In this document: piece after piece, positions 14,944 to 59,588 of the stretch
Layout of the letters: each line of letters opens with the position of its first letter
How positions within the stretch are numbered: position 1 is the stretch's first letter
DNA from: a virus
Taxonomy: Duplodnaviria > Heunggongvirae > Uroviricota > Caudoviricetes
Direction: 5' to 3' (one strand)
DNA length: 64,000 nucleotides
Virus record (IMG/VR): IMGVR_UViG_3300031417_000415
Position numbers and translations under genes: made by a program
Notes under the pieces: generated by a model
Seen by the model: the letters and a program-made list of their open reading frames with translations, nothing else
Told to the model about the DNA's origin: nothing
The model's database searches: none

Positions 14944-14964
14944 GGGCCCTCCGGGGCCCTTTTT
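14944..14964 (+). terminator. rho-independent terminator GGGCCCTCCGGGGCCCTTTTT
   Basis: GC hairpin plus T5 run. Confidence 0.5.
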
Positions 14965-15006
14965 CGTGAGCGAGGCCCCGAAAAGACGGAAACGCTCCAC
15001 GGACGA

Positions 15007-15018
15007 TTTTCAGGATGA
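15007..15018 (+). promoter_or_regulatory. TTTTCAGGATGA motif copy
   Basis: recurring motif. Confidence 0.3.
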
Positions 15019-15212
15019 CACGGACCGATATCAACGGGTAGCATTGCGGATGGCCTACGGAAGGGAAAAGACCCGGAATCCGTCGCCGCGATGCGGCAGG
15101 CCGTCGTCGTCGCCCACGATACGGGCACCCAGCACCGCGAGCATGTCCACGGGAACCGGTCCTCCGGTACGCCCGACCGGCTGCGCGCACGTCCCCTGAA
15201 CGGAGCATCGCC

Positions 15213-21650: not shown

Positions 21651-22036
21651 GCGCGCCGCTCGTCATGCGCCATGGCCGGCCTCTGCTGATGTACCACGGC
21701 ACGACCGCTCGGTTCGAGCGGTTCAGCGAGCGTCACTGGGACAGTGATCGGGGCTTCTTCTTCACGCCCCGCCTGGCCTACGCCAGGCAGTATGCCCGCG
21801 GCGAGGGGGGCAGGATCATCTCCGCCCATCTCGCCATGTCCAATCCCTACCGGTGCACCGAGATGGACTGGGGATGGGCGAAGGGCCTGAGCATGGACGA
21901 GGCACGCGAGGCGGGACACGACGGCTACGTCGTCGCCCCCTACAGCCTCGGGACCATGTTCGTCGTCTGGAACCCCGATGCCATCCGCGTCCTCTCGCAC
22001 GACCTGGACTCACAGCAGCACAGGCTGGCCGCATAG
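21647..22036 (+). CDS. hypothetical protein
   Basis: ATGA overlap. Confidence 0.4.
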   Translation: MSAPLVMRHGRPLLMYHGTTARFERFSERHWDSDRGFFFTPRLAYARQYARGEGGRIISAHLAMSNPYRCTEMDWGWAKGLSMDEAREAGHDGYVVAPYSLGTMFVVWNPDAIRVLSHDLDSQQHRLAA

Positions 22037-34589: not shown

Positions 34590-35642
34590 ATGCGCCTTCT
34601 CGTCATGTCCATCCTGCTGTCCGCGACGGCGATCCCTGTATCAGCGCAGACGGCGGACACCATCGTCATGCGCAAGGTCATGGGGGCCATCGCCTACCCC
34701 AAAGACCTGAAGCCCAAGTACGGCTGGGCCTATGGGGAGTGGACATCACCGACGAACGCCTGCGGTACGACCGTGCAGACGCGCACGGTGACCTGCGTCA
34801 AGGGAGGCAGGCCCGAATCCCCCGATCTGTGCCGGCAGGCGCCACAGGCAGCCACGCGTACGGTCGAGGACCTGTCCAGCTGCGTGTACGACTGGAAGAC
34901 GACCTACAGCGGCTGGCAGGGAAGCTGCACTGCGGCGGCCACCCGGTCCGCAACCAGCGTCTGCCGTCGCTCCGACGGCACCGTCGTGGCCGACGCCTTA
35001 TGCGATTACACCAGCCGCCCCAAGACGGTGGAAACCGCCGCGAACTATGCTGGATGCGTCTACGACTGGAAGGTAGGGACATGGAGTCAGTGGAGCTCGA
35101 CGTGCTCCAACAGCAGCCTGCATACGCGGTCGGTGACCTGCGAGGCAATGACGGACGAAGGCACCGGCATCAGGGGGACGGTCGACAAGTGCAGGACGCC
35201 GCAGCCGGTCGACCGCGAGACGCAGAAGATCGTCACCGACTGCACAGGAATGCTGGTCAACGGCAACTTCGAGAGCGACATGACCGGCTGGACGCCCACA
35301 AGTCGTGCATCGATCAGTTCAACCGTCGCCCACGGCGGCAAGAAGTCGATGCAGATATACAACACGAGCTCGATCTCGCAGACCATCCAGACCGTCATAG
35401 GCGCAAGCTACAGCGTCACGTTCTACTCGTACCAGTACGGATCGAACGGAATACGTCTCATGATCGGCGGCAACCTGATCGCAGGAGGCCGGGGCTCCAA
35501 CGGCAACTACGAGTGGTTCCAGCGTTCCGGATCCTTCGTGGCGACCTCGGACACGACCAAGCTGACTTTCCTTGCAGAAGGCGGGTTCACCTTCACGTCC
35601 GAGTACGTAGACGACATCGTGGTTGCCCAGTCGCCCATGTAG
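34590..35642 (+). CDS. secreted protein with thrombospondin-type-1-like Cys/Trp repeats and C-terminal carbohydrate-binding-module-like beta domain
   Basis: signal peptide; repeats YGEWTSPTNACGTTVQTRTVTC / YDWKVGTWSQWSSTCSNSSLHTRSVTC; C-terminus NGNFES..GWT. Confidence 0.5.
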   Translation: MRLLVMSILLSATAIPVSAQTADTIVMRKVMGAIAYPKDLKPKYGWAYGEWTSPTNACGTTVQTRTVTCVKGGRPESPDLCRQAPQAATRTVEDLSSCVYDWKTTYSGWQGSCTAAATRSATSVCRRSDGTVVADALCDYTSRPKTVETAANYAGCVYDWKVGTWSQWSSTCSNSSLHTRSVTCEAMTDEGTGIRGTVDKCRTPQPVDRETQKIVTDCTGMLVNGNFESDMTGWTPTSRASISSTVAHGGKKSMQIYNTSSISQTIQTVIGASYSVTFYSYQYGSNGIRLMIGGNLIAGGRGSNGNYEWFQRSGSFVATSDTTKLTFLAEGGFTFTSEYVDDIVVAQSPM

Positions 35643-39600: not shown

Positions 39601-40503
39601 CGCAGGCGCGACGGCGCCCCAGGCCTGCTCCTTCCAGGAATAGCTGCACTGGCCGTACTGGTCGCCGGTCTCGCTGACGGCCGGCTTGGCGCCAGCTGCG
39701 CCGCACATGGCATCAGCGACCTCGTCACCGTTAGAACGGAGGCAGACGACCTCGCGGGTACGGGTCGCTCCCGTCTGGCACGACGACGACCACGGGGTCC
39801 ACGCCTTCTCCTTCCAGGAGTAGCCGCACTGGCCGTAGCGATCCTCGGTCTGCGATGCCGCAGGCTTCTTGCCCGAAGCCGAGCACTCGGCATCCGTGAC
39901 CTTCTCGCCGTTCGACCGCTCGCACCACACGTTGCGGGTCGAGGTCGCGGCAGTCTGGCACTCGCCCGAGAACGCCGACCATACGTCGTTCTTCCACTCG
40001 TACGAGCAGGTGCGCAGGTCGCGGACCTCGCGGCTCGTATCTGGGGCAGGAGCCGGGCACTGGTCGTTGGGGACCGTCTTGCCGTCGCCGCGCAGGCAGG
40101 TCAGCTCGCGGGTCTCGACCACCTGGCCGCAGCCGGAGGCATCGGTCCACTCGCCGGGCTGCCAGGTGTAGTCGCAGCCCTGGATGTCGTAGCACGACTG
40201 GTTGTCGGCAGGACGGTTCGGGCCGCAGTTGACCTCCGGAGAACCATGCTTGCCGTTCATCATGCACTGGACGGCGCGGGTCTGCTGACCGGCGCCGCAG
40301 CTGTTCGAGCACTGGCTCCATGCATCCGGGATCCACGCGTAGGTGCGGGTCTTCGGATCGAGCGAGCGGCGCATCACGACGACGCCCGAGTCCGCCTGCG
40401 CATACGCCGCGGTGGACTGCAGCATGCCAATTGCGATGAGTGACGCTGCTGCATACGCGGCAAGACGCATAGTTCGGACTCCCGATGGATTTGGGAGAAG
40501 CAT
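36652..40503 (-). CDS. giant secreted protein (1283 aa) of about 20 tandem thrombospondin-type-1-like repeats
   Basis: signal peptide; repeated unit W..WS.TCGSATQTR.VTC..SDG.TVAD..C...KP; the long sense-strand ORF is R/A/G-rich junk. Confidence 0.55.
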   Translation of the reverse strand: MLLPNPSGVRTMRLAAYAAASLIAIGMLQSTAAYAQADSGVVVMRRSLDPKTRTYAWIPDAWSQCSNSCGAGQQTRAVQCMMNGKHGSPEVNCGPNRPADNQSCYDIQGCDYTWQPGEWTDASGCGQVVETRELTCLRGDGKTVPNDQCPAPAPDTSREVRDLRTCSYEWKNDVWSAFSGECQTAATSTRNVWCERSNGEKVTDAECSASGKKPAASQTEDRYGQCGYSWKEKAWTPWSSSCQTGATRTREVVCLRSNGDEVADAMCGAAGAKPAVSETGDQYGQCSYSWKEQAWGAVAPACGPSSRSRSVQCVRSNGDVVADGSCDAGTKPAVSEAVTDYQTCTYSWNPAAWSAPSTTCGSATSTRSVTCLSSDGRTVADASCSGAKPDLSKTTYETSGCGYSWNAGAFGSPVPACGPTVQNRSVTCLRSDGQTVADGSCAAGSRPAAQQAATDYSTCTYGWSVGSFGAWSATCGSATQTRPVTCQSSDGRTVADSFCATAKPDTSQASYQTAGCARTWNVGAWGSPDSGCSAAAVQTRSVTCQRSDGQTVGDAECTAAKPTTSQTIANYGSCAPYWYAASGFTDWNSHCSTNATRTRDIGCFRHEERCVVGSANYWSDAGGGNCYRKIDNAQCAARPDATREGFGPTLNNSETAAVYDQCGYSRVSPSAWSGWDNACSGTANRTRTYSCQRSDGTIVAAGECTARGILLTETQTGANYTNACPGYFSVSGWTDYNSHCSASATRTRTATCYRAGDNVFAGDQYCTDRGVAVPSRSETTGIYDGCGYTWSTGGWGVPAAACGASARYRAVWCTRSDGATVDAGNCNPGTRPPDGEGVTDYSACSYGWAYNGWGTTAQSCGSVSQARSVWCQRSDGATVAEGYCNAGARPAASQTFADYSACGYSWVAYGYPAQQAVCGTASYSRDVACVRSDGARVAEAYCGGGKPPTTENYTNYAACGYSVSGWSGYNYASSCSGNTTATQYATGCRRSDGADVAIAECSNRGIPTSQSVQTANFSGCGYSWQAGGWSGQQAVCTTGTEYRDVWCQRSDGARVDGSLCGGGQPAGAQGYSNVAGCGYTAYYGGFGECQSNGTQTQGMNLCQRSDGASVAGDECVARGQPWTRSQACTYYTYQAFYGAFGACTNGTKTQGMNLCRRSDGASVAGEECVNRGQPWTISQACTLSCSWTAGGPGYGSSGAATSWGSSRMPTSMTTIPWVYYALSNGAASGGPEYLSNTPNSTNPGTCDVSKNGVYGTIYGLQRSYGGGYPSTTGSKNVICSCTG

Positions 40504-41266: not shown

Positions 41267-41674
41267 ATGAGAATCTTCATGGACGACGACCGCAACCACC
41301 CGCTCGGCGAGGACTGGATCGTCGTCAGGACCGTCGAGGACATGCTCGATCTGGTCGATCGCCACGACGCCGATATCCGCGAGATCTCCTTCGACAACGA
41401 CCTGCGCCAGGAACTCGACGGCATCCATGGGCTGACCATGGTCCGCGAGCACATGCTCGACGATCCGACGCGGCTGCCCGCTCTCGAGCGGATCACGGTG
41501 CACAGCCTGAACGGCGAGGCCGCCAAGGCCATGCTGAGCGACCTCGTCTCGTACGTGAAGCACGGCGTGCTGCCCGACATCAAGATCAGACGCCGGCCGG
41601 CGGAGGGCACGCTCTATCCGCTCCTGACCGAGGACGACCGCGGCATCGTCGCGTACGCGCGTCCCGGCGCATGA
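41267..41674 (+). CDS. receiver(REC)-like domain protein
   Basis: conserved GAGGAGGAAAACC-ATG motif; N-terminus MRIFMDDDRNHP...WIVVRTVEDMLDLV...ISFDNDL. Confidence 0.35.
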   Translation: MRIFMDDDRNHPLGEDWIVVRTVEDMLDLVDRHDADIREISFDNDLRQELDGIHGLTMVREHMLDDPTRLPALERITVHSLNGEAAKAMLSDLVSYVKHGVLPDIKIRRRPAEGTLYPLLTEDDRGIVAYARPGA

Positions 41675-41937
41675 GCGGGATAACGCCCTCGGCCACCATC
41701 CCGATCGGCGACGTCGCGGCCATGATGGACCGCATGTGGCAGGAGATGGTCGGCTTTCCGATGGCGCGGGTCTGCATGCACTATGCCGCAGGCATCGTCA
41801 TCCAGGAAATGGAGAAGCTCGACATCGCCCCGCCGGACGACATCGTCCGCGCCGTCGTGTTCGCGCACGACGACATACCGCTCGCCTGGACGCGTCCGGC
41901 GACATCGAAACCCGCATCCGGAGACCAGACGCCATGA
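41671..41937 (+). CDS. hypothetical protein
   Basis: ATGA overlap. Confidence 0.3.
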   Translation: MSGITPSATIPIGDVAAMMDRMWQEMVGFPMARVCMHYAAGIVIQEMEKLDIAPPDDIVRAVVFAHDDIPLAWTRPATSKPASGDQTP

Positions 41938-42476
41938 CCGACATTCCGACAGTCTCCTACGACGACATCCGCTCGCGATTCGAGGCGGACGGCATCAGGA
42001 TCGGAGACGTGCACCGCTCGCACGAGCACTTCGTGGACTGGCACGCGCGCCACGACCTTCCTGACCGGGACGCCGACGGCATGGCGATCGGCATGTCGCA
42101 CATCTTCATGTCGATGTACGACGCGGCTCCGGACGGACGCGCGCAGCGCCCGCCGTACGTCAACTTCTGGCACTGGATGCTCGACGCCTACGAACACGTC
42201 GAATGGGACGAGACGCCCCAGGGCCGTCGCAAGACGGTGCCGCTGAGCCGCGGCATGCACCAGCCCAGAGCCCCACTGTCCGAAGAGGAGGCGACCGCGG
42301 CGATCGCCGCCATGCTTGGCTCTACCGTGCTTCCCAAGGACATGCGCCGGTCGATCGACGAGCACGTGCGGCAGGACCTCTCCGATCTGGTGGTACGCCA
42401 CAACGAGAGTCTCCGGATCGTCGACGTCATCCTCGACCGGTACGGGGACGAGATCCTGGTACTGATGAGCGTCTGA
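41934..42476 (+). CDS. hypothetical protein
   Basis: ATGA overlap. Confidence 0.4.
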   Translation: MTDIPTVSYDDIRSRFEADGIRIGDVHRSHEHFVDWHARHDLPDRDADGMAIGMSHIFMSMYDAAPDGRAQRPPYVNFWHWMLDAYEHVEWDETPQGRRKTVPLSRGMHQPRAPLSEEEATAAIAAMLGSTVLPKDMRRSIDEHVRQDLSDLVVRHNESLRIVDVILDRYGDEILVLMSV

Positions 42477-42529
42477 AGGGCAGACCTTCGGAAAGAACGC
42501 GACGAGACGGATTCCAGAGAGGAAAAGCG

Positions 42530-43510
42530 ATGAACGAGAAGACCACTTCGCCGGCGGCCCTGACCACCCTGCGCAGCATCACCGGCGCGCTGTACCGCCA
42601 TGGCCCGAAGGAGAGCCGGGAGTTCCTGTCGCTCGCGACGCGGCTGGAGACCGGCATCTGGGCAGGCATCAAGGACCGGGGCGTGTTCCCCGGAAAGGTC
42701 TACGGCAAGTTCTGCGGCACCGAGGTCGTGGTCGACCTCTACCTGCACCTCGTCGCCAAGGACGGCACGGTCTCCGAGCACCCTGTCCAGTGGGCCATGC
42801 GCACGACCTTCCCGCCAGTCGTCCTTCTGGGCGTGCCCGGCGACGTGGGCGAGACGCCGCAGATCGCGCCGACCGCCGAGATGTCGTGGCCGCAGTACCA
42901 GACGATCCATCGGCCGGACATCGTCGGCGTCAGCCGCTTCGGCACCTTCGTGCCGCGCGGCGAGACGAAGTTCGACCGGCCGGTCACCGGCGTCGTCGGC
43001 TCGATCTACGAGGATCCGATGATCCAGACCTACCGCTGCGGCTCCGACGACGCCCATGACGCGCGCGCTATCTGCGTCAGCGCATCGTACGACTATCCCT
43101 CCGACGCGATCGTCGGCTGCCCGGCGGTGGACGACTTCGGTCGTCTCGTCGGCGTCACGATCGGCACCGATCCCGGGCCGGAACGCGGCCATGTCGGCAT
43201 GTACGTGCCGGCAGATCTCGTCATCACCGCGATCCCGATGGCGCGTGCCGCGATCGGAGCGCTCCGTCGCGGCGACCGGCACTCGACCGGCATCGAGCGC
43301 GTGCAGTTCTGGAACAGCGACGTCATGTTCGACGAGGAGTTCGTGCCGGACCGCCGTCCGAGCCACCGCCTCGACCAGATGGTCAAGGTCGTGCTGCCAC
43401 GTCGCACCTGGGACGCGATCATCGACCAGGCCGAGGCCGGATACGGCGCAGAGGCGAGCCAGGATTCCTACGCCGAAGTCGACGCGCTGAAGACCGCCGT
43501 CGGCGAATGA
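42530..43510 (+). CDS. hypothetical protein (326 aa)
   Basis: conserved GAGAGGAAAAGCG-ATG motif. Confidence 0.4.
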   Translation: MNEKTTSPAALTTLRSITGALYRHGPKESREFLSLATRLETGIWAGIKDRGVFPGKVYGKFCGTEVVVDLYLHLVAKDGTVSEHPVQWAMRTTFPPVVLLGVPGDVGETPQIAPTAEMSWPQYQTIHRPDIVGVSRFGTFVPRGETKFDRPVTGVVGSIYEDPMIQTYRCGSDDAHDARAICVSASYDYPSDAIVGCPAVDDFGRLVGVTIGTDPGPERGHVGMYVPADLVITAIPMARAAIGALRRGDRHSTGIERVQFWNSDVMFDEEFVPDRRPSHRLDQMVKVVLPRRTWDAIIDQAEAGYGAEASQDSYAEVDALKTAVGE

Positions 43511-43959
43511 GCGACCTGACGACCGTCCCGGCGGAGGAGGGCATCCCCTCCGTCGAGGACATCGCCATCCGGATCTCGGGTGACGCCGATCCGGACGAGA
43601 TCGTCCTCCAGATGGCCCGGGCTGTACGGTCGCGCATCGTCGCGATCAGGCACCGGGAGGCCGCACGGCCATGCATCACGTGCCGCCACCGCATCTCGCC
43701 CGGGGCCACTCCCGTCTTCATCGGAGTCTGCGTCAACCCGGTCGTCGCCGAGGTATCGTACCGTCCTGACAGCGGCGACATGAAAATCAGAGGCGTGAAC
43801 TGCGTCGAGGAGCGGGGTGTACGGCCCGGATACCGGAAGCGGATACATGTCTGCGGTCCGGAGGGGCTCCTGCACGAGCCGATGGCCGTATCCTTCCTGA
43901 TGCCCCGCCTACGAGCCTATCTGCGATGGCTGAGGCTGGGGAATGACATCCAGCACTAG
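43507..43959 (+). CDS. hypothetical protein
   Basis: ATGA overlap. Confidence 0.35.
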   Translation: MSDLTTVPAEEGIPSVEDIAIRISGDADPDEIVLQMARAVRSRIVAIRHREAARPCITCRHRISPGATPVFIGVCVNPVVAEVSYRPDSGDMKIRGVNCVEERGVRPGYRKRIHVCGPEGLLHEPMAVSFLMPRLRAYLRWLRLGNDIQH

Positions 43960-44034
43960 CTCATTCCATCCTGAAAGTTCTTCACTCCCGTCGGTCCGGC
44001 GTGATACGATGCGTGGACACGAAGGGAAAAGACG

Positions 44035-44607
44035 ATGCTGATCAGTATCTCAGGCGCAAGCTGCTCGGGAAAGACCACGCTGGCACTCGAGCTGGGGCGC
44101 CTGCTGGACGCGCCGGCGCTGCATCTCGACCGCTACTTCATCGAGGACGCCGAACGTCCGCTGGTGATGGGGCACCCGAGCTTCGAGCAGCCGCACCAGT
44201 ACGACGGCAAGGCGATGCTGCACGACGCGCGTCTCGCCATGTGCGAGAACGAACTGGTGATCGCCGAGGGCTTCCTCCTCTTCTCGTACAGTTCGTTCGA
44301 GATGGAGAGCTACCGCATGATCCATCTCGACGTCCCCCACGAGGTGCTCGCCGAGCGACGTCTGGCGCGCGCCATGTCGAAGCAGTCGACCTCCGAGGTG
44401 AAGGGCGGACGCATCAAGACGGCCGACGCAGGCTGGCAGGCGCACGGCGAGGCGGAATGGCAGCGCTGGGGAGCCTTCCAGGCCGACATTCCGGGCATGC
44501 AGGTCGTGCGCAGCCGCGATCACGGCGGCACCTACCCATCGTCGTCCCAGGACATCGCCCAGGCGATCCTCGACTCGTGGTGGGGGCCAGCGCAGCAGGC
44601 TGCATAG
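44035..44607 (+). CDS. P-loop nucleoside kinase (nicotinamide riboside kinase / uridine kinase-like)
   Basis: conserved GAAGGGAAAAGACG-ATG motif; Walker A ISISGASCSGKTTLA; IHLDVPHEVLAERRLAR. Confidence 0.45.
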   Translation: MLISISGASCSGKTTLALELGRLLDAPALHLDRYFIEDAERPLVMGHPSFEQPHQYDGKAMLHDARLAMCENELVIAEGFLLFSYSSFEMESYRMIHLDVPHEVLAERRLARAMSKQSTSEVKGGRIKTADAGWQAHGEAEWQRWGAFQADIPGMQVVRSRDHGGTYPSSSQDIAQAILDSWWGPAQQAA

Positions 44608-44630
44608 GCCGCTTCGATCCGAACCGCGTC

Positions 44631-44659
44631 AGGGGTCCTTCGGGGCCCCTTTTCTTTTG
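44631..44659 (+). terminator. rho-independent terminator AGGGGTCCTTCGGGGCCCCT + TTTTCTTTT
   Basis: GC hairpin plus T-run. Confidence 0.5.
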
Positions 44660-44743
44660 TGCGGACAGCCGAACAACCGTCCATCGAAGGCGGAGGCTGC
44701 CTCACGAACGCGACACGACATGCATTCCGAAAAGGAAAACGAC

Positions 44744-45169
44744 ATGGGCCTGCATTCCACCACCGACCTCGAAGAATTCGCAGTAATGCTGAACGAGTTC
44801 GCATCGTCATGCTACGACCACAGCGTGCTGGCGACGCACTCGAACACCTCTCTGTTCGAGTGCGCCGACACCGTATCCATCCTGTCGGGCGACGTCACGA
44901 CCGCGATCACGGGGTTCGAGGCCTTCGACGAGGATATCACGGAACGAGAGGCTGTCAGACGCATCCATGCGATGCTGTCCTCGCCAGCCGGCACGTCAAC
45001 CATAATCGCCGGAGAAGCATGCATCTCCATAGGGCCGGGACGCCCGTTCGTACGGGCGACGCGACCGACACCCGATGTGCTGGTGATCGAATCCGGAGGC
45101 ATGCGGCCCTCGGTCATGATAATGATCGTCGACCGCACACCCGGTCCCGTCGACACCGAAACCGGCTGA
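44744..45169 (+). CDS. hypothetical protein
   Basis: conserved GAAAAGGAAAACGAC-ATG motif. Confidence 0.4.
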   Translation: MGLHSTTDLEEFAVMLNEFASSCYDHSVLATHSNTSLFECADTVSILSGDVTTAITGFEAFDEDITEREAVRRIHAMLSSPAGTSTIIAGEACISIGPGRPFVRATRPTPDVLVIESGGMRPSVMIMIVDRTPGPVDTETG

Positions 45170-45204
45170 CTGGATGCCTGAGCGGACCTTCCTTCGCTTT
45201 TGAT

Positions 45205-45290
45205 GCCGTACCGCATTTCGCTTCTAATGCGTGAAATACGACGCATATCGCCGTCCATGCGCCAGATATGACGCATTTCCGCCATCCCGG
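45205..45290 (+). promoter_or_regulatory. intergenic region with two or three 30 bp imperfect direct repeats, each holding an ATGCG..CGCAT inverted repeat
   Basis: AATGCGTGAAATACGACGCATATCGCC / CATGCGCCAGATATGACGCATTTCCGCC. Confidence 0.3.
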
Positions 45291-45336
45291 GCGCGCGCCC
45301 GATCTCGCTTTCCATGCATAGAACAGGGAGTCTGCC

Positions 45337-45960
45337 ATGCAGAACGCCACCATGCTCGTATACGCCTCGGGCCAGCAGTACCGATCCATCGGCGAGATCG
45401 TCGGCGGTCTCGTCTGTCTCAAGACGATGAGCGAGGAGCTCTTCGTCATCCTGCCCGGCGAGTCCGTGAGGGCACGGTCGAGCGAGGTGCGGGTATCGGA
45501 TACCGGCATCGTGGTGCAGGGCCGTGACATGATCCCCTTCGAAGGCACCAGCAGCTGGGAACGGCACCACGGCAACGCCTGCGTGAACTTCACGCTCGCC
45601 GGCGGGGACGAGGGCATCATCGCTCCGGCCGTGCGTCCGGTCGGCATGGACGTCGCAGGCGAAGTCTCGAGCTTCTTCCGCAACGCCAGCCAGGACGACG
45701 ACATCTTCCTGATGGACCTCGGCTCGTATATCGCGGATGGCGCGGAATGCCCGGGACACAAGATGGCGGTACTGCGCAGCGCGGCCGACAAGGAGGTCTA
45801 TGACGACGAGGACGTGCTGATCGTCAACGGAAACCGGATTCCGCTGGCCGACATCACCTGGGCGGAGATGGACAAGGACGGCGACGGCAACCGGCACCTG
45901 CATCTCGTCCTTGCGGACGGGCGCTACCGCCGGGTAAGCGCTGGCGACTTCAGCCGCTAG
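45337..45960 (+). CDS. hypothetical protein
   Basis: RBS GGGAG. Confidence 0.4.
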   Translation: MQNATMLVYASGQQYRSIGEIVGGLVCLKTMSEELFVILPGESVRARSSEVRVSDTGIVVQGRDMIPFEGTSSWERHHGNACVNFTLAGGDEGIIAPAVRPVGMDVAGEVSSFFRNASQDDDIFLMDLGSYIADGAECPGHKMAVLRSAADKEVYDDEDVLIVNGNRIPLADITWAEMDKDGDGNRHLHLVLADGRYRRVSAGDFSR

Positions 45961-45988
45961 AGCACGAACGAACGGACAGGAGGAAAAG

Positions 45989-46534
45989 TTGGGCAGGAAC
46001 AGGAAGGCGCCAGTCGCCGCGAAGGACACGGGCCTCCACATCTCGTACGGCGGCGGGTACGAAAGCACGGCGGTGCAGCTCGGGCTCCTGGCGCGCTACG
46101 CGTCGGAGCCCTACGTCGTCGGGCCCAGCCGGGGCGAGGGTGTCAAGATCCTGCGCAACCCCGACTACGTCGAGAGCACGGTGGGCATCGACAAGGTCGA
46201 GCGTCTGAGCGACCTCTCGATCGAGCGGATCTTCCGGGCATGGGGACCGGCGTCCTATCCGCGCCTGAAGTACGACGCGCCTCACGCCGTGCAGCGCGGC
46301 TTCGCTCGGCACCTCGCGCTGACGGGAGACCGGCCGCTTCCGCCCGAACCGTTCGTCGTCGACCCCGCGCGCTACGGCAGCCGTGGCGGCATGGCCTCCG
46401 ACATGCGCGGCATGATGGCCGTCCTCGAGGCCGCCGAGCGAGCCGGGCGTACGGTCTACCATCCCACGGAAGCCGAGCCGGGCTCGGCCGAGGATCGCCG
46501 ACTGGCCTACGGCCTCCGCCGACAGGACGCCTGA
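45989..46534 (+). CDS. hypothetical protein (TTG start)
   Basis: conserved CAGGAGGAAAAG-TTG motif. Confidence 0.4.
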   Translation: MGRNRKAPVAAKDTGLHISYGGGYESTAVQLGLLARYASEPYVVGPSRGEGVKILRNPDYVESTVGIDKVERLSDLSIERIFRAWGPASYPRLKYDAPHAVQRGFARHLALTGDRPLPPEPFVVDPARYGSRGGMASDMRGMMAVLEAAERAGRTVYHPTEAEPGSAEDRRLAYGLRRQDA

Positions 46535-46578
46535 ATCACCGGACACCGGGTCTGGACATCGAAGCTGAGGGAAAAGAC

Positions 46579-47151
46579 ATGGGATACAGCGGCTACGGCG
46601 GCTACGGCTACCGCGACGGCGTGCGCATCGAGACCGCATCTGATGCGCTCATCACGCCCGACAGCGTCAATCACGGCGTGCCCGGGGGCTTTCCGCCATC
46701 GGAACTGATGGTGGCGGCGAACGGCGAGACCGGCGCGGCGATCAACGGCCATGTCGTCATCGGCGACGGCCCGGTCTTCGTCTCGCTCTACAAGCACATG
46801 CTGAGCGTCTATCTGCTCGCGGACGGCGTGTTCCACGACCAGAACCTCGAGACGATCGGCGTCGACCTTCCGGACGAGGTCGTCATCGACTTCGGCGACG
46901 GGACCTGCTCGCTCGACCAGGACCGCATGGTCGAGCGGACCGACATGCTGCGCTTCGAGATCGAGGGCCACGTGATCGAGTATCGCATGGTCGCGCACCC
47001 GCGCTGGGTGCAGCACGCGCGGATCACGCAGCCCGACGGCACCGTGTGGACCGGCTTCTGCGGCCTGGAGATCGGCGCCGGCCACGAGGACGAGGACGAC
47101 GACGCCACCGCGGTCATCGAGCGCAGCCACCTCGCGCTGTTCGGGAAGTAG
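46579..47151 (+). CDS. hypothetical protein (Gly/Tyr-rich N-terminus)
   Basis: conserved GAGGGAAAAGAC-ATG motif. Confidence 0.4.
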   Translation: MGYSGYGGYGYRDGVRIETASDALITPDSVNHGVPGGFPPSELMVAANGETGAAINGHVVIGDGPVFVSLYKHMLSVYLLADGVFHDQNLETIGVDLPDEVVIDFGDGTCSLDQDRMVERTDMLRFEIEGHVIEYRMVAHPRWVQHARITQPDGTVWTGFCGLEIGAGHEDEDDDATAVIERSHLALFGK

Positions 47152-47155
47152 CGCC

Positions 47156-47392
47156 ATGGACATGCGGCAGACAGCTCCCGTCGACTGGGACGGCGACCTC
47201 GTCGCGATCCACGTCGGCGGGCCGGTCCCGAACAGTCCGGCAGCGCTGATGGCCGGAACCACGGTTCCGGTCACCGCTTCGTCCTCGCTCGGTCAGAAGG
47301 CGGTGTACGGCGTTCCGGGCTTCCGGGACGGCCTGTGGGCGCGCCTGGACGGGAGCACGAGGACGCACTGGCGGATCGCCAACGCGGCATAG
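47156..47392 (+). CDS. small hypothetical protein
   Basis: ORF. Confidence 0.3.
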   Translation: MDMRQTAPVDWDGDLVAIHVGGPVPNSPAALMAGTTVPVTASSSLGQKAVYGVPGFRDGLWARLDGSTRTHWRIANAA

Positions 47393-47437
47393 GTCCGATT
47401 TCACGACGACGAGACCAACCACCGGGGAGGAGGAACG

Positions 47438-48103
47438 ATGGACTACAAATATCCGCGGACATATCATCTGCCGACCTCGCCCGGTCTGCAGAACGACGAC
47501 AGGCGGCTGCCGAGCCTCCGGCCCTTCGTGGGCAGGCGGGTGATCGGTACCGAGAAGATCGACGGCGAGGGCACGACGATGACGCCCGAGAAGACCTACC
47601 CCAGGTCGCCGGACGGCCGCTATCATCCGTCGCGCGACCTGATGAAGGCGTTCCACGCCACCAAGAAGGCCGACATCCCGCACGACTGGCGGATCTCGGG
47701 CGAGTACGGCTATGCGCGCCACTCGATCGCCTACACGCGCGATCTGGGCAACGCGCTGCCGGCATGGTTCCTGGGCTTCGGCGTATGGGACGAGCGCAAC
47801 GTGCTGCTCGGCTGGGACCAGACGCTCGAGGTGTTCGAGATGCTGGACATCGCGCCCGTCCCGGTGCTGTACGACGGCATCTACTACGACGGCCTGGCCG
47901 ACGATCTTGCGAAGTCGATCGATCCGCTCCGCCAGGAGGGCTTCGTGCTCAGCCTCGCGGATCCGATGCCGTACCCGGACGGCGCGGGCGACAGCGGCCG
48001 CTTCTTCACCGGCAAGGCCAAGTGGGTGCGGCACGGACACGTCCAGACCAATCGCCACTGGATGAGCGGCCCCGTCGTGCCGAACGAGCTCGTGCAGGGC
48101 TGA
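47438..48103 (+). CDS. RNA ligase (covalent nucleotidyltransferase superfamily, small Rnl-type)
   Basis: motif I EKIDGEG, III ISGEYGY, IV EGFVLS, V FFTGKAKWVRH. Confidence 0.55.
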   Translation: MDYKYPRTYHLPTSPGLQNDDRRLPSLRPFVGRRVIGTEKIDGEGTTMTPEKTYPRSPDGRYHPSRDLMKAFHATKKADIPHDWRISGEYGYARHSIAYTRDLGNALPAWFLGFGVWDERNVLLGWDQTLEVFEMLDIAPVPVLYDGIYYDGLADDLAKSIDPLRQEGFVLSLADPMPYPDGAGDSGRFFTGKAKWVRHGHVQTNRHWMSGPVVPNELVQG

Positions 48104-48171
48104 GGCACCGACGCAATCGCACGTTAAGATCTCGTATGCGATACGAGACCAACAGAAAAAGGGGACCTGCC

Positions 48172-48660
48172 ATGATGATCTCATTCCTGACTGCCGCAAT
48201 GCTCGCAGCGACCATGCCTCAGGTGCAGGACGCGCCGCCGATCGCGCCTGGCGTCGTCATGACCGAAGGCGGTCCGGAAGAGGACGTCATGGTGACGGAG
48301 CCTGCGCTTCGCAGCCGCATCGCGGTGAACGAGGTCCGCAACCCCTGGCGCGGTGCAGGGACGATGGCCGTACGCCGGGGACGTCGGGCGGCGCCACCGC
48401 TGCGGATCGACTACGACCGCGACGGCGTCGTCGACACGGTCCGCCTGGTGCAGAGCCGCATCCATTCGGCAGTTCTCCTGACCTCGGGAAAGACCGGTCG
48501 TACGCGGCCGATCTGGCTGATCGACAGCGACGGACTGGGCGCCGACGTGCATCTCGGCAAGGGCGAGAAGAACACGATCGAGATCGTCTTTCCCGAGTCG
48601 ACAGTGATCTTCCTGTTCGACGACCACGGCAAGCCGATGGCAACCTACCAAAACGGCTAG
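48172..48660 (+). CDS. secreted or membrane-anchored hypothetical protein
   Basis: N-terminal hydrophobic MMISFLTAAMLAATMP. Confidence 0.4.
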   Translation: MMISFLTAAMLAATMPQVQDAPPIAPGVVMTEGGPEEDVMVTEPALRSRIAVNEVRNPWRGAGTMAVRRGRRAAPPLRIDYDRDGVVDTVRLVQSRIHSAVLLTSGKTGRTRPIWLIDSDGLGADVHLGKGEKNTIEIVFPESTVIFLFDDHGKPMATYQNG

Positions 48661-48711
48661 AGACGTCCCGACGCACCTCGTGCGGATGAGACGAACCTGA
48701 AGGAAAAGCAA

Positions 48712-49662
48712 ATGCGCGCCGTGATATTCGACGTCGACGGCACACTGGCCGACCCGTCGCACCGACTTCACCACCTCGACGGCATCGACAAGGACTGGAA
48801 GTCGTTCCACCGCGAGGCCGAGAACGATCCGGTGATCGAAGGCATCGCCGAGATGGCGCGCATCCTGTACCGGACCTGCACCGAGGGCCTGGGCATCGAC
48901 GCCGTGCTGATCGTGACCGCGCGTCACGACGATCCCGCCATCAAGGCGACGCTGATCGCATGGCTGGAGATGGCGGAGATCCCGTATCACCGCATCTACA
49001 TGCGGGCGGACGAGGACACGCGACCCGACCACGTGATCAAGGCGGAAATCCTCGAGCGCATCCTCGAGGATGGCTACGAGCCGATCGGCGTCTTCGACGA
49101 CCGGCCCGAAGTGGTGCGCATGTGGCGCGACCACGGCATTCCTACGTTCCAGGTGGCGCCCGACGAGCAGCCAGCCACCCAGTATGCCGGCCAGACGCTC
49201 CTGCACATGCTGATCGGCCCATGCGGCGCCGGCAAGTCCACCTACGTGGCGGCTAACTACAGACCCGAGGACGTCATCTCGGTCGACACGCTCCGCGTCC
49301 AGCTCTTCGGCAACATGGGCCACAGCCCGGAGGCGCTGATCCGGGTCTGGAAGTACGCGCACGGCCTTGTTCGGGCGCGCCTCGAGGCGGGCGTGTTCAC
49401 GGTGCTGGACGCGACCAACCTCGACCCCGAGGACCGCGAGAAGATCCTGCGCCTCGTGCCGCGCAACGTCTTCATAAACTACATCGTGATCGACCGCGCC
49501 TACGACGACAAGGTGCGCGACCGCGACTGGCGCGACGAGGACATGGTGCAGAAGCAGCATCGCCTCTTCCGCCGCCACGAGGACGTCATCCTCGCAGGCG
49601 ACGACCATCCCTGGGTCGTGGTCAAGGACAAGCGGGATCCGCGCTCCAAGACGCGCAAGTAG
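48712..49662 (+). CDS. polynucleotide kinase/3'-phosphatase (N-terminal HAD phosphatase plus C-terminal P-loop kinase)
   Basis: conserved GAAGGAAAAGCAA-ATG motif; AVIFDVDGTLAD (DxDGT) and GPCGAGKST Walker A. Confidence 0.6.
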   Translation: MRAVIFDVDGTLADPSHRLHHLDGIDKDWKSFHREAENDPVIEGIAEMARILYRTCTEGLGIDAVLIVTARHDDPAIKATLIAWLEMAEIPYHRIYMRADEDTRPDHVIKAEILERILEDGYEPIGVFDDRPEVVRMWRDHGIPTFQVAPDEQPATQYAGQTLLHMLIGPCGAGKSTYVAANYRPEDVISVDTLRVQLFGNMGHSPEALIRVWKYAHGLVRARLEAGVFTVLDATNLDPEDREKILRLVPRNVFINYIVIDRAYDDKVRDRDWRDEDMVQKQHRLFRRHEDVILAGDDHPWVVVKDKRDPRSKTRK

Positions 49663-52498: not shown

Positions 52499-53359
52499 AT
52501 GTCGAACTACGATTCCATCGCCAAGAAGGGCCGGAGCATGATCGGCTGCGGGGTAATCCTGGCCATGCTGGCGGTTGGCCTCATCGCCCTACGCCTGTGC
52601 GTGCAGCGAGTGTCACCGGACGCGGGGGTAGCGGCAGTGCTGATCGAAAAGCCGATCTTCTTCGGTCACGGCGGCGTAAGCCCGGTCGCGATCACCACCG
52701 GCTCGAGCTACGTCTGGACCACGACCGACGTCGTGATGGTCAACATGAAGCCGATACAGGAAACGGTCGACTTCAACGATCTGATGTCGTCGGACGGCAT
52801 CCCGCTCCACTTCGACAGTGCCATCCGCCTGCAGGTAGTCGATCCCGTGCAGCTGATCGCGCGGTTCGGTACCGAATGGTATCGCAACAACCTGGCGGTC
52901 GAGTTCAGCAACCGGGTACGTCAGGCCGTCCGCAAGCACGGAATGAACGAGACGGCGATCAACACCACGGCAATCGACGCGATCGACGCCGAGGTCACGG
53001 CGCAGATGCTGCAGTACATCAGGTCGTCGGGCCTGCCCATCCGTCTGATCAAGATCACCGTCGGCCGCGCTAGCCCGCCGGATTCGATCAAGAACCAGCG
53101 TATCACCACGGCGAACGAACAGCAGCGGCAGATCACCGAGGTCCAGACGCAGCGCGCCGAGGTCACCCGCAAGGGGGCCGAGGAAGCACGTGCCGACGCG
53201 GACAACGCCTATCGTCAGCGCCTGGGCCTCGACTCGCAGCAGTTCGTCGATCTGCAGCGGATCGGCATGATGCGCGACGTCTGCAAGCCCAAGGACGGCG
53301 AGAACAGCCCTTGCACGTTCATCATCGGCAACGGCACCGCGCTGGTGAATACCAAGTAA
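52499..53359 (+). CDS. SPFH/band-7 (prohibitin/stomatin-like) membrane protein
   Basis: conserved CAGAAGGAAAAAAGA-ATG motif; N-terminal TM plus SPFH-like core and coiled-coil tail. Confidence 0.6.
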   Translation: MSNYDSIAKKGRSMIGCGVILAMLAVGLIALRLCVQRVSPDAGVAAVLIEKPIFFGHGGVSPVAITTGSSYVWTTTDVVMVNMKPIQETVDFNDLMSSDGIPLHFDSAIRLQVVDPVQLIARFGTEWYRNNLAVEFSNRVRQAVRKHGMNETAINTTAIDAIDAEVTAQMLQYIRSSGLPIRLIKITVGRASPPDSIKNQRITTANEQQRQITEVQTQRAEVTRKGAEEARADADNAYRQRLGLDSQQFVDLQRIGMMRDVCKPKDGENSPCTFIIGNGTALVNTK

Positions 53360-53448: not shown

Positions 53449-54486
53449 ATGTCAGCCCACGGCTCCAAGAAGGCGCTGTTCGCAGCCCTCGCCGCGAATG
53501 CGGGGATAGCCGTCGCCAAGTTCGGTGGCGCGGCATACACCGGCTCGTCAGCTATGATGTCGGAAGGCGTCCATAGCCTGGTCGACACCGGCAACCAGAT
53601 CCTTCTGCTGTTCGGGATGAAGGACTCGAGCCGCCAGCCCGACGCGTCACACCCGTTCGGCTACGGCCTACGCCTCTACTTCTGGGGGTTCGTAGTCGCG
53701 ATGATGGTATTCGCGCTTGGCTCGCTCGTCGCCATCACTGAAGGCTACGAGAAGGTTCGCGAGCCGCACGAGATCCACAACGCCGTCGTGAACTACATCA
53801 TCCTGGCCTTCGCAATCGTACTCGAAGGAGCCTCACTGCGCGTCGCGATGCGTCAGGTCGCCGTACAGGCGAAGAAGCGCGGAATGACCATGCTGCGCAC
53901 CATCCAGACTCACCGGGACCCGACAATCTTCGCTGTGATCTTCGAGGAGACCGCAGCACTCGCAGGCCTGATCATCGCCATGGTCGGCCTCGCCGCGTCG
54001 CAGATCTTCGCAATGCCCGTCATCGACGGCTACACATCGATCGGCATCGGCGTCGTGCTGGCAATCACCTCGTTCAGTCTCGCGCGCAAGTGCTACAGCC
54101 TGATGACCGGCCAGGCTGCGGATCCCGAGCTGTCGGACCGGCTATGGGACATCCTGGAAGGCATCAAGCTCGTCAAGGAGGTCAACGAGATCCGGACGAT
54201 GCACTTCGGCCCCGACGAGGTCACGATGCTCGCTTCGGTCGACTACCACGACGAGTACAACGGCAAGCCGATCACGAGCCGTACGCTTGAAAGCATCACC
54301 TCGGATGTCAGCGAAACCATGCGCGAGGAGTTTCCTGCCACGAAGCTGCGCATCTACATCGAGCCGCAGTCGAACACCCGCCACCTCGAGGAGCTCGAGG
54401 AAATGGGCGAGGAAGCCGACGCGCTCTACACCGAGGAGGAGCTGGCGGCGGAGGCCGCCGAGGCGGAAGGCCGTTCGGCTGCGTGA
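53449..54486 (+). CDS. cation diffusion facilitator (CDF) family metal efflux transporter
   Basis: conserved GGAAGGAAAAAAG-ATG motif; HSLVDTGN and HPFGYGL signatures, six TM helices, acidic C-terminal domain. Confidence 0.7.
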   Translation: MSAHGSKKALFAALAANAGIAVAKFGGAAYTGSSAMMSEGVHSLVDTGNQILLLFGMKDSSRQPDASHPFGYGLRLYFWGFVVAMMVFALGSLVAITEGYEKVREPHEIHNAVVNYIILAFAIVLEGASLRVAMRQVAVQAKKRGMTMLRTIQTHRDPTIFAVIFEETAALAGLIIAMVGLAASQIFAMPVIDGYTSIGIGVVLAITSFSLARKCYSLMTGQAADPELSDRLWDILEGIKLVKEVNEIRTMHFGPDEVTMLASVDYHDEYNGKPITSRTLESITSDVSETMREEFPATKLRIYIEPQSNTRHLEELEEMGEEADALYTEEELAAEAAEAEGRSAA

Positions 54487-56464: not shown

Positions 56465-57112
56465 TTGAACCTCGACAACTTCGCATCGCCCTACAGCTTG
56501 GCTCCCCAGGGCATGGGCCTCGTCCCCATGGTCCTCGAGCAGTCCAACCGCGGCGAGCGCTCCTTCGACATCTTCTCGCGTCTCCTGCGCGAGCGCATCA
56601 TCTTCGTGACCGGCGGCGTCGAGGACAACATGGCCTCGCTGATCTGCGCCCAGCTTCTCTTCCTCGAGTCTGAGAACCCGAAGAAGGACATCTACATGTA
56701 CATCAACTCGCCGGGCGGCGTCGTCACGGCGGGCATGGCGATCCATGACACCATGCAGTACATCCGTCCGGACATCTGCACCGTCTGCGTGGGCCAGGCA
56801 GCGTCGATGGGCAGTCTCCTGCTTGCGGCGGGAACACCCGGCAAGCGCATCGCGATGGTCAACTCGCGGATCATGATCCATCAGCCTTCGGGCGGCGCTC
56901 AGGGCATGGCGTCGGACATCGAGATCCAGGCGCGCGAGATCCTGCGCATGCGCACGAGCCTGAACAACATGTACGTGCAGTACACGGGCCAGCCGCTCGA
57001 CGAGATCGAGCGTAAGATGGACCGCGACACGTTCCTGGAAGCCGACGAGGCCAAGGCGTTCGGTCTCGTCGACCAGGTCTTCGACAAGCGGCCGCTGCCG
57101 GACGCGGCCTGA
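56465..57112 (+). CDS. clpP: ATP-dependent Clp protease proteolytic subunit ClpP (probable TTG start)
   Basis: [23 protein letters not shown]...[12 protein letters not shown]...GQAASMGS...MIHQPSGG; highly similar to alphaproteobacterial ClpP; RBS AGGAGA before TTG. Confidence 0.8.
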
Positions 57113-57733: not shown

Positions 57734-57964
57734 ATGCCCAAGCATCTCGTGACCATGCTGGTCGGCCGCATCGTCGAGGCCGAGACCGCCGAGGAGGCCA
57801 ACGCGCTTGCAAGCCGACCCTTCCTCCTGGGAGCGGTGCCGGGAGTCGTCGGCATCGCTCTTTCAGGCACCCGCCTCGCCTTGCCGCAGGACGAGGACGG
57901 GTCCATCCAAGAGCGCATCCATGCGCTTCCTCCCCAGGTCAAGGAGACCACCGATGCTGTTTGA
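57734..57964 (+). CDS. small hypothetical protein
   Basis: RBS GGAGAAC. Confidence 0.3.
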   Translation: MPKHLVTMLVGRIVEAETAEEANALASRPFLLGAVPGVVGIALSGTRLALPQDEDGSIQERIHALPPQVKETTDAV

Positions 57965-58841
57965 ATGTGCAGTAGGCGACGCCTACGGTCTCGGCTGGGA
58001 ATTCGCCGACGGCCCGACCGCCCAGCACGGCGCCAACGATCTGAGCGCCTACCGGGTCAATCCACGCTACCCGGAGTATCCGGCGGGACGCTACACCGAC
58101 GACACGCTGCGGGCCCTGGCGAACGCGTCGGTCGTCCTCAGCACCCGCAGCGGCTGGTACGACCCCGCCAGCTATGCGCGCGCCTATCAGCGCATCCACG
58201 CCGTCGACGGACGTCAGGGTTGGTCGCGCGGCTTCCAGGCGTATCTCGAGGAACACCGCAGCTCGTCTGCGTTCCAGTTCATGCTGGGCCTGCGTCGGCG
58301 CGCGACCAACGGGGCCGTCATGGGCGTGGCTCCTCTGGGCTACCTGCCGCACGAGAGCTTCGTGCGCATGGCGGTGACCGCGCAGTGCGTCTCGACGCAT
58401 TCGGGCGCGACCGTGTCGTCGGCGCAGGCGATCGCGCTCGCCGCGCATTACCTCCTCTACGGCAAGGGACCGATCGACCAGCTCGAGGACTATCTCGACC
58501 AGGAGGTCGACTGGGCCAGCAAGGACGAGGCGACCCGCATCCTGTGCCGACACGGATCGGCCGTCCCGGTACCGGCGATGCCCGCCTGGACGATCGCGGC
58601 CGGCGCGGTCTTCCTGCTGACCGACGACCTGTTCACCGGCATGGCCGACCGCCTGCAGTTCGCCATCAAGCGTGGCGGCGACACCGACTCGCTGGGCGCG
58701 GTGACGATGGCGCTCTGCTCGTGCACGCAGTCGATCCCGAACGATCTTCCCCCTTCGCTGACGGACCACCTCGAGGACGAGAACGGCCGCGCCATGCTGC
58801 GCGACGTCGACAGGCAGCTGCGCGAGTTCGCCGGGCTTTAG
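57954..58841 (+). CDS. ADP-ribosylglycohydrolase family protein
   Basis: N-terminal AVGDAYGLGWEF and C-terminal KRGGDTDSLGAVTMAL signatures. Confidence 0.6.
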   Translation: MLFECAVGDAYGLGWEFADGPTAQHGANDLSAYRVNPRYPEYPAGRYTDDTLRALANASVVLSTRSGWYDPASYARAYQRIHAVDGRQGWSRGFQAYLEEHRSSSAFQFMLGLRRRATNGAVMGVAPLGYLPHESFVRMAVTAQCVSTHSGATVSSAQAIALAAHYLLYGKGPIDQLEDYLDQEVDWASKDEATRILCRHGSAVPVPAMPAWTIAAGAVFLLTDDLFTGMADRLQFAIKRGGDTDSLGAVTMALCSCTQSIPNDLPPSLTDHLEDENGRAMLRDVDRQLREFAGL

Positions 58842-58865: not shown

Positions 58866-59588
58866 ATGACCACCAAGAAGGAGATGGAGGCCCTGGAGCC
58901 GTATCTCGAGGGGATGCGCGCCGCGACGAGCGCCGAGGAACTCGAGGCGGCCTTCCAGAAGGACCGGACCTACCTGGCGCACGGCTTCCAGAGCCGCGGC
59001 ATGCGCGCCATCGAGAAGGTGCGCATCGAGGAAGGCATCCGTCTCTGCACCGAGCATCCGCACGGACACCTCGTGCCGCGCTACGGACCCCGTCGCCGGC
59101 TCGAGGTCTGCACCGAGACGTATAGTGTCGCGCGTGGCGGCAACACGGCGGGCGTGCGCTATGCCTGGGGCTACGCCAAGGACTGGGCCATCGACGTCAT
59201 GATGGAGGGCGGACTGTCCCGCAAGGCCGCGCATCTGGTCTGGGACAGCTTCCGGTCCTATCCGCACCGAGCCCTGCGGACGGTCGAGGAGGCGATAGCG
59301 GGACGGCTTCCCGATCCGCAGCTGGAAGTGCTCATACGACACGAACGCAACGGCGGCAGGCCGGTACGGTATTCGATCGAGGAGAACGAGCGGAACGGCG
59401 GACACCGGCACGCCACCCGTCCCTGTCCGTGCGGAGGTACGCTGTTCGACTGGGGCGCAGGACACAGTCTGGGCTTCGAGTTCGTCGACTGGCACTGCAA
59501 CGCCTGCCCGGACGTGTTCACCGAATACATGACGAAGGAGCAGCTGTACGCGCTGCGCTGGCGCGCCGCCGATAGGAAGGCAGCATGA
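58866..59588 (+). CDS. hypothetical protein
   Basis: conserved CGGAGGAAAAACGG-ATG motif. Confidence 0.4.
   Translation: MTTKKEMEALEPYLEGMRAATSAEELEAAFQKDRTYLAHGFQSRGMRAIEKVRIEEGIRLCTEHPHGHLVPRYGPRRRLEVCTETYSVARGGNTAGVRYAWGYAKDWAIDVMMEGGLSRKAAHLVWDSFRSYPHRALRTVEEAIAGRLPDPQLEVLIRHERNGGRPVRYSIEENERNGGHRHATRPCPCGGTLFDWGAGHSLGFEFVDWHCNACPDVFTEYMTKEQLYALRWRAADRKAA

Follow-up and report, generated by a model that had tools for sequence, protein, structure and literature searches.

A solitary ADP-ribosylglycohydrolase in a huge phage-like element, and an NRK1-like kinase that keeps company with RNA-repair genes

When a gene for removing ADP-ribose and a gene for a nucleoside kinase are found on the same stretch of mobile DNA, do they belong to one NAD-centred system, or did they arrive there separately? 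This question is raised by the IMG/VR record IMGVR_UViG_3300031417_000415, of which a stretch of 64,000 nucleotides (hereafter the window) was analysed and whose source appears to be a huge phage-like element. A first-pass annotation of the window had recognized an ADP-ribosylglycohydrolase at positions 57954–58841 and a kinase resembling nicotinamide riboside (NR) and uridine kinases at 44035–44607, and had proposed that the two may form an NAD/ADP-ribose counter-defence set. In the analysis reported here both identities stood up and the tie between the two genes did not. The hydrolase is discussed below as a candidate stand-alone eraser of ADP-ribose marks, together with the rival explanations that have to be set beside this reading, and the kinase as a member of a different neighbourhood.

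The hydrolase at 57954–58841: family, active site and surroundings

The hydrolase gene (57954–58841, + strand) encodes a stand-alone protein of 295 amino acids, which was placed in the ARH/ARG superfamily of ADP-ribosylglycohydrolases by its Pfam match, its residues and its fold. PF03747 was matched with 68.3 bits (cut-off 26.2, E 1.1e-18), residues 6–255 being aligned to positions 7–275 of the 287-position profile, and PHROG 6572 ("ADP-ribosylglycohydrolase") matched as well. The two signatures on which the first-pass identification had been based, GDAYGLGWEF and GGDTDSLGA, turned out to be metal-binding motifs: E16 lies in the former, D243 and D245 lie in the GGDTDS part of the latter, and a further acidic pair, D49 and D50, sits in YTDDT, the other key residues being T51, D85, T148-H149 and S246. 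In an alignment of 40 homologues reaching down to ~31% identity, D9, E16, D49, D50, R87, G89, H149, D243 and D245 were invariant, and T51, D85 and T148 were conserved in at least 90% of the sequences. A loss of catalytic residues, which the first-pass annotation had named as the observation that would speak against a functional hydrolase, was not found, as the full metal and catalytic set is present. The gene is preceded by a Shine-Dalgarno-like AGGAG (57942–57946, + strand), read from the sequence 7 nt before the ATG, its GC content at third codon positions is 0.86, and the identical gene was called on nine public contigs. No promoter or terminator signal rose above the shuffled background around it.

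Pairwise alignment with DraG placed E16, D49/D50 and D243/D245 on the metal ligands of that enzyme (E28, D60/D61 and D243/D245), the metal-ligand motifs of ARH3 (E41, D77/D78 and D314/D316) also aligned with the acidic residues of the hydrolase, and T148-H149 fell on the TH motif of DraG. D85 occupies the column that separates wild-type DraG (2woc) from the D97N entry (2woe), D97 being catalytic in DraG. The AlphaFold2 model was all helical, with a mean predicted local distance difference test (pLDDT) of 97.3, and Foldseek returned ARH3, DraG, Tri1 (6dre, template modelling (TM) score 0.74) and MJ1187, with a probability of 1.0 and TM scores of 0.74–0.76, as well as a Thermus ARH protein which, like the archaeal MJ1187, is uncharacterized; identities were 20% or less. 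When the profile of the family was searched, ARH3 (1.1e-21), DraG (7e-21) and Tri1 (2e-19) scored nearly equally and ARH1 came far behind; the NCBIfam Tri1 profile gave 14.6 bits on the hydrolase against a cut-off of 490. With DraG, ARH3 and Tri1 the protein shares the fold (TM ~0.75) as well as the residues for metal binding and catalysis, a counterpart of DraG D97 among them, but it is at most 20% identical to them and has no DraT- or Tre1-type transferase, no GlnB/GlnZ and no nitrogenase context beside it. Because it is equally far from ARH3, DraG and Tri1, similarity does not reveal its substrate class. By sequence and model it looks like a genuine ARH, apparently catalytically competent, that forms a subfamily of its own.

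Homologues of the hydrolase numbered 208. An alignment-based scan of IMG/VR detected the family in 51 viral contigs, 24 of which exceed 200 kb, with a locus GC content ranging from 24 to 68%, and the closest IMG/VR relatives were ~40% identical; single-sequence IMG/VR scans with the hydrolase and with the kinase gave no match, and neither did tblastn of the hydrolase against plasmids. Neighbours were compared within 10 kb on either side of each homologue, that is, in 20-kb neighbourhoods and not in whole genomes. At this scale, clustering of open reading frames (ORFs) revealed no conserved partner next to the hydrolase, no family being common to more than 14 of the 54 loci, and the neighbours that did recur (HD_4, WYL, HNH and an AAA_33 kinase) were confined to one sister lineage. 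Homologues of the kinase at 44035, of the ADP-ribosyltransferase (ART) of the element and of other window genes were absent within 10 kb of the hydrolase in the 53 related loci, save for ClpP within the clade. Bacterial relatives (~34% identity) have an NrtR-type Nudix regulator close by, a setting also reported for conflict systems built around ARG (PMC9503650). In PADLOC, the hydrolase, the kinase, the ART, a cREC protein of the window and the neighbours of these all remained without a match.

The sister lineage, one of huge phages, comprises eight IMG/VR contigs of 58–465 kb (L076, L077, L079–L083 and L115), in which the hydrolase homologue (~35–40% identity) belongs to a gene group at about 5,000–11,400. 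A P-loop kinase of the AAA_33 family (161 amino acids) follows the homologue directly on the 3' side, and on its 5' side genes for a WYL-domain protein and for an HD_4 (RelA/SpoT-type HD) protein lie at distances of ~1.4 kb and ~5 kb, respectively; HD_4 was counted in 14 loci.

The immediate neighbours in the window are mostly without assignment. Upstream, an ORFan of 76 amino acids (57734–57964, + strand), the 3' end of which runs 11 nt into the hydrolase gene, is known from close relatives only; it had no match in Pfam, NCBIfam or PADLOC and no homologue near the hydrolase in the 53 related loci. Another ORFan of 240 amino acids, ending in -Ala-Ala (58866–59588, + strand), lies directly 3' of the hydrolase, is likewise restricted to close relatives and matched no family. 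A ClpP protease (56465–57112, + strand; CLP_protease, E 1.9e-84) is encoded further upstream, with two small genes between it and the hydrolase, and on a contig of the isolate assembly of Sphingomonas sp. 3-13AW ClpP adjoins the hydrolase directly.

The kinase at 44035–44607 and its RNA-repair neighbours

The kinase gene (44035–44607, + strand) was called identically on ten contigs and encodes 190 amino acids with the P-loop GASCSGKT and an -Ala-Ala end. Its only Pfam match above the cut-off was the generic AAA_18, a NadR-type AAA_28 match was not obtained in Pfam, and the best NCBIfam entry, uridine kinase, stayed far under its threshold. Against solved structures, the single sequence matched human NRK1 best (2e-4), and the profile of the 36-member family reached 2.3e-15 for NRK1 and 3.6e-11 for uridine kinase (Udk) in the PDB. 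The AlphaFold2 model (pLDDT 90.4, with lid residues 119–124 below 50) gave the same order in Foldseek, the top seven matches being NRK1 (E 1.6e-10, TM 0.74–0.79), followed by uridine-cytidine kinases. With NRK1 and then uridine kinase as the nearest solved relatives by both profile and fold, the NRK/Udk-like identity proposed in the first pass was borne out, and the comparisons led neither to a dNMP kinase nor to an unrelated P-loop family. Archaeal and bacterial relatives (27–36% identity) resemble uridine-kinase-type salvage enzymes. Next to one such cellular relative, in a verrucomicrobial metagenome-assembled genome, a candidate nicotinamide mononucleotide (NMN) adenylyltransferase, which would have spoken for an NR kinase, was considered and rejected, since the PF01467 gene just upstream resembles RfaE domain II (heptose-1-phosphate adenylyltransferase).

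Across the 36 members of the kinase family D32, Y56, D57, E78, R109 and R112 are invariant and K13 is kept in at least 90%. These positions, together with F35, correspond to well-characterized residues of NRK1, namely Lys16 (K13), Asp36 (D32), Phe39 (F35), Tyr55/Asp56 (Y56/D57), Glu98 (E78) and Arg129/Arg132 (R109/R112). In NRK1, Asp36 and Glu98 are essential carboxylates, Asp56 and Arg129 are ligands of the ribose 2'/3'-hydroxyls, Arg132 is a phosphate ligand, and the pyridine ring is held between Tyr55 and Tyr134, with Phe39 (PMC1994991). At the base-stacking site of the kinase Y56 and F35 are kept and the Tyr134 position aligns with M114, beside the low-confidence lid. Human NRK1 is therefore the nearest match by profile and structure, with its catalytic and ribose residues retained, but the kinase is only ~20% identical to it, and Met114, beside the low-confidence lid, is what aligns with Tyr134. 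As judged from these comparisons and from the model, it is a putative ribonucleoside 5'-kinase of the NRK1/Udk type, with a base specificity that comparison does not fix. A mononucleoside and not a polynucleotide would be its substrate, because the ligands of the 3'-hydroxyl are conserved.

Around this gene, Pfam identified three candidates for RNA repair: a cREC domain protein (PF20274; 41267–41674, + strand) 2.4 kb 5' of the kinase, an RNA ligase (PF09414; 47438–48103, + strand) 2.8 kb 3' of it, and a polynucleotide kinase-phosphatase (PNKP; HAD_PNKP and AAA_33; 48712–49662, + strand). Together with the kinase, which lies between cREC and the ligase/PNKP pair, they span 8.4 kb (41267–49662). 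For the cREC family, a role in the processing of cyclic phosphates during RNA repair and of ADP-ribose cyclic phosphate (ADPr>p) has been predicted (PMC9503650). The genes that flank the kinase are not conserved beyond close relatives. In four further contexts an RNA ligase or a Pnkp-type fusion (AAA_33, Metallophos and RNA_lig_T4_1) is nevertheless encoded downstream of a kinase homologue, at distances of 0.3 kb (L234, 5277–7147), 1.1 kb (L219, 3–2402), 2.9 kb (L226, 10001–16055) and 9.6 kb (L213, 2736–13278), and the repair genes are non-orthologous between the contexts. An RNA ligase or Pnkp was present 0.3–10 kb from the kinase in five of nine independent contexts vs. three of the 53 hydrolase loci, which were searched with the same queries (Fisher P = 9e-4); the ligase of L213 was taken from precomputed Pfam matches and not from phmmer, and without L213 the value is P = 6e-3.

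A published survey had already found tRNA ligase, cREC and "a nucleotide kinase" combined in phage neighbourhoods (PMC9503650, section 3.7.3). The window resembles them in its combination of cREC, kinase, RNA ligase and PNKP, as do the kinase homologues that lie near repair genes, but neither a sirtuin nor KptA was called in the window and the published kinase was not specified as NRK1-like. The kinase travels with RNA-repair genes, independently of the hydrolase, and for its function the linkage to RNA ligase/Pnkp is a more promising clue than the rebuilding of NAD+. A stand-alone NRK1-type kinase linked to RNA repair is less familiar in such an element.

What the hydrolase may do

The explanation that we favour, and to which we give about an even chance, is that the hydrolase is a stand-alone ADP-ribose eraser that reverses marks set by enzymes encoded elsewhere. 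We infer such a biological role because the hydrolase is solitary, because its active site is strictly kept and because it recurs in huge phages of unrelated hosts. The two-metal centre (E16, D49/D50 and D243/D245) would cleave the C1'' bond between ADP-ribose and its substrate, so that free ADP-ribose would be released from the latter. The targets would be ADP-ribosylations on phage or host macromolecules, made by the ADP-ribosyltransferases of host defences or toxins, and the kinase at 44035 would have no part in this activity. That the hydrolase by itself, as opposed to a set, serves in counter-defence is plausible by analogy.

The analogies come from two sides. ARG domains were reported in ~5% of jumbo phages and were predicted to remove macromolecular ADP-ribose adducts (PMC9503650). 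Like those surveyed by Iyer, Burroughs and Aravind in 2022 (PMC9503650), the present protein is a stand-alone PF03747 domain with a binuclear metal site and a TH motif, from a very large genome; unlike them, it was found in an element that is phage-like only, its IMG/VR relatives are ~40% identical, and the functions in the survey are themselves predictions. Phage ARHs with a predicted de-ADP-ribosylating activity have been described before, and the present hydrolase is a divergent addition to them. On the other side stand phage erasers that serve as counter-defence, the NADAR protein AdfN (PMC11825919) and the DarG2-like macrodomain of chimalliviruses (PMC13309987). Both are orphan phage hydrolases that undo the ADP-ribosylation made by a host toxin and defeat DarTG, as we would expect of the present enzyme. 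They nevertheless have unrelated folds (NADAR and macro), known substrates (ADP-ribosylated guanine or thymine on DNA) and a demonstrated activity, whereas that of the ARH described here is predicted.

Several observations weigh against this eraser reading. The reading presupposes an ADP-ribosylating defence in the host of the element, the ART of the element offers an internal source of ADP-ribosylated substrate, and the hydrolase is equidistant (identity of 20% or less) from serine-, arginine- and ribose-specific ARHs, so its specificity is not readable from them. The viral nature of the source is not supported by the window either, as capsid, portal and terminase genes were not found in these 64 kb and none of ten large window proteins gave a PHROG structural match; for this reason we speak of a phage-like element. 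In addition, the related contig of Sphingomonas sp. 3-13AW bears plasmid-like or ordinary bacterial genes.

The rival that the first-pass annotation had put forward, in which the hydrolase strips ADP-ribose and the kinase converts NR into NMN in order to refill NAD+, appears very improbable. Both genes are intact, belong to the right families and occur together in the element of the window and in a 1.27-Mb relative, NR phosphorylation for the rebuilding of NAD+ by phages is known as NARP3 (PMC13464706), and in the eight contigs of the sister lineage it is a different P-loop kinase that directly follows the hydrolase. Against this, 13.3 kb and 22 called genes, including those for the RNA ligase, the PNKP, a Band_7 protein, a cation-efflux protein and ClpP, separate the two genes in the window, and in the 1.27-Mb contig the kinase homologue (61% identity) is ~310 kb away from the hydrolase homologue (46% identity). 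The co-occurrence in relatives that had been suggested as a check was seen in 0 of 53 loci within 10 kb. The alignment-based scan of IMG/VR returned no member of the kinase family, vs. 51 contigs for the hydrolase family, and tblastn of the kinase against phages gave no match; the kinase scan of genome contigs missed the Sphingomonas sp. 3-13AW contig and that of metagenomes missed the contig of the window itself, so an absence in those two scans is uninformative. Among the genes called over 1–64000 there was no NMN adenylyltransferase (NMNAT, PF01467), PnuC, Nampt or PRPS-like/Adps/Namat gene, and since NMNAT, PnuC and Nampt were not called, an NR kinase would produce NMN with no encoded route to NAD+ in the window. 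The defining pair of none of the known pathways, NARP1 (Adps and Namat), NARP2 (Nampt and Nmnat) or NARP3 (PnuC and NadR), is present there. NARP3, which consists of a PnuC-like transporter and a NadR-like bifunctional enzyme (PMC13464706), and the nadR/nadM/pnuC clusters of jumbo phages (PMC11662467) are counterparts of the kinase in that they lead by phosphorylation of NR to NAD+, but theirs is a NadR-type kinase fused to or beside NMNAT and PnuC, and the present one is of the unrelated NRK1/Udk type. Furthermore, a specificity for NR is no more than putative: Tyr134 of NRK1 seems not to be conserved, and the best NCBIfam entry, albeit below threshold, is uridine kinase. Two NAD-themed genes within one 64-kb window do not amount to a system.

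Three other rivals concern the hydrolase by itself. It could be the eraser or antidote of the element's own ART, limiting in time or reversing the modification of targets in host or phage as in the DraT/DraG or Tre1/Tri1 pairs, which we hold to be rather unlikely. The enzyme in question is a stand-alone ART-PolyVal (21647–22036, + strand; 129 amino acids, -Ala-Ala end; PF18760, 58.5 bits, E 1.7e-15) with H17-G18, Y49 and D92 invariant in the alignment; its 929 homologues are mostly single or repeated domains in giant polyvalent proteins of 1,000–7,000 amino acids. That an intact ART is encoded by the same element, 36 kb upstream of the hydrolase, that ART-ARG pairs have been described in Aeromonas phages (PMC9503650) and that the fold search also returned Tri1 (6dre, TM 0.74) speak for such a pair, but the genes are not adjacent, no ART family was present among the genes called within 10 kb of the hydrolase, and no ART-PolyVal homologue was found at that distance in the 53 related loci. 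A weaker objection comes from the viral scan for ART-PolyVal, run with a narrower alignment, in which the best 80 of 221 contigs were all below 93 kb and none was a hydrolase contig. Small soluble derivatives of ADP-ribose as substrates, i.e., O-acetyl-ADP-ribose (OAADPr), the glycocyclic ADP-ribose (gcADPR) or His-ADPR of TIR/Thoeris systems, or by-products of NAD+-dependent RNA repair, are unlikely too, if with slightly more to commend them. ARH3, which ranks first in the profile search (1.1e-21), hydrolyses OAADPr and ribose-ribose bonds, and the cREC, RNA ligase and PNKP genes of the element are tied to the metabolism of ADPr>p (both PMC9503650); yet just three of 53 hydrolase loci have an RNA ligase within 10 kb, and the same survey makes the case that the ARG domains of phages favour conjugates with macromolecules (PMC9503650). 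It is improbable that the gene came from a bacterial host as a passenger or for housekeeping and plays no part in conflict, or that it encodes an ARH-fold enzyme whose ribosyl substrate is not ADP-ribose. For several ARH-fold proteins the function is unknown or does not concern ADP-ribose (MJ1187 and the Thermus protein were both returned as matches), and ordinary bacterial and plasmid genes occur on the related Sphingomonas contig, but the full active-site set is strictly kept down to ~30% identity and the hydrolase is present in 51 viral contigs of widely differing GC content. The conserved active site and the recurrence of the gene in these 51 contigs both speak for an enzymatic function under selection in such elements.

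The source element and a possible place of the hydrolase among phage erasers

The hydrolase and kinase proteins are both found, sequence-identical, on the 552,210-bp JGI metagenome contig Ga0308169_10000012, and other genes of the window form the same gene run on an ENA contig of 1,059,898 bp. The contig from the isolate assembly of Sphingomonas sp. 3-13AW (581,572 bp) carries a hydrolase with 79% identity, and more distant relatives are metagenome contigs of 658 kb and 1.27 Mb. The window has a GC content of 66.5%, its genes lie nearly all on the + strand and the majority have no family assignment; likewise, the contigs of the window and their relatives (L001, L015, L016, L017 and L209) are dense in unassigned genes that mostly run in the same direction. 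Megablast of 14 kb against phage records gave no match, and a tRNA search found none. Judging from sequence features, the source would be a huge phage-like element, 552 kb or more in length. The largest phage genome in the huge-phage survey of 2020 had 735 kb; if they are phages, some of these contigs exceed this size, and concatemers, misassembly or megaplasmids are alternatives.

Among the few other genes with an assignment, a TnpB (IS605 OrfB, with a Cas12f-like TNB domain; 13061–14320) is one of the rare genes on the – strand, ends in -Ala-Ala, and was seen as the exact protein on two contigs only. A protein of 1,272 amino acids (36652–40470, – strand) carries thrombospondin-type (TSP1_ADAMTS) repeats, which are odd for a bacterial mobile element, and a smaller neighbour (34590–35642, + strand) gave faint TSP1/DUF642 matches. 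The remaining assigned genes encode a PTH2 peptidyl-tRNA hydrolase (33745–34503, + strand), which is found again near the hydrolase in the Sphingomonas contig, a Band_7/stomatin-like protein (52499–53359, + strand) and a cation-efflux (CDF) transporter (53449–54486, + strand). The 1.27-Mb relative (L209) has two PF03747 hydrolase paralogues (8001–8900 and 14316–15257, with 5.4 kb between them), near genes for PhoH, an R2K ATP-grasp protein and aminoacyl-tRNA synthetases.

An -Ala-Ala end was shared by 21 of the 92 genes called in the window and 5 kb beyond (23%), when 1.6% would be expected from the internal frequency of the dipeptide (binomial P ~1e-18). The proteins concerned include ART-PolyVal, TnpB, the NRK-like kinase, ClpP, the cation-efflux protein and the product of the gene 3' of the hydrolase (gene stops, for instance, at 22036, 44607, 57112 and 59588, and at 13061 on the – strand); the hydrolase has no such tail. 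In the kinase family the end is kept and the residues before it vary, and the share of genes with it was 11–20% in relatives and 1.4% in distant hydrolase-bearing viral loci. By analogy, these tails look like an ssrA-type C-terminal degron for ClpXP that is used genome-wide, in an element with a ClpP of its own.

Phage erasers of ADP-ribose are so far known only from the NADAR and macrodomain folds. It is conceivable, although we put this forward as a tentative and rather doubtful extension, that the ARH fold is a third superfamily of ADP-ribose erasers used by many huge phages for counter-defence, after the NADAR AdfN and the DarG2-like macrodomains, and that, separately, the NRK1-like kinase is a new accessory of phage RNA repair, which would provide RNA ligase/Pnkp systems with a nucleotide or NAD+ precursor or act on a ribose 5'-hydroxyl generated by repair. 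A conserved, solitary ARH that occurs in at least 51 viral contigs would be an easily expressed candidate with which to ask whether phages employ the third fold as they do the other two, and which modification it counters.

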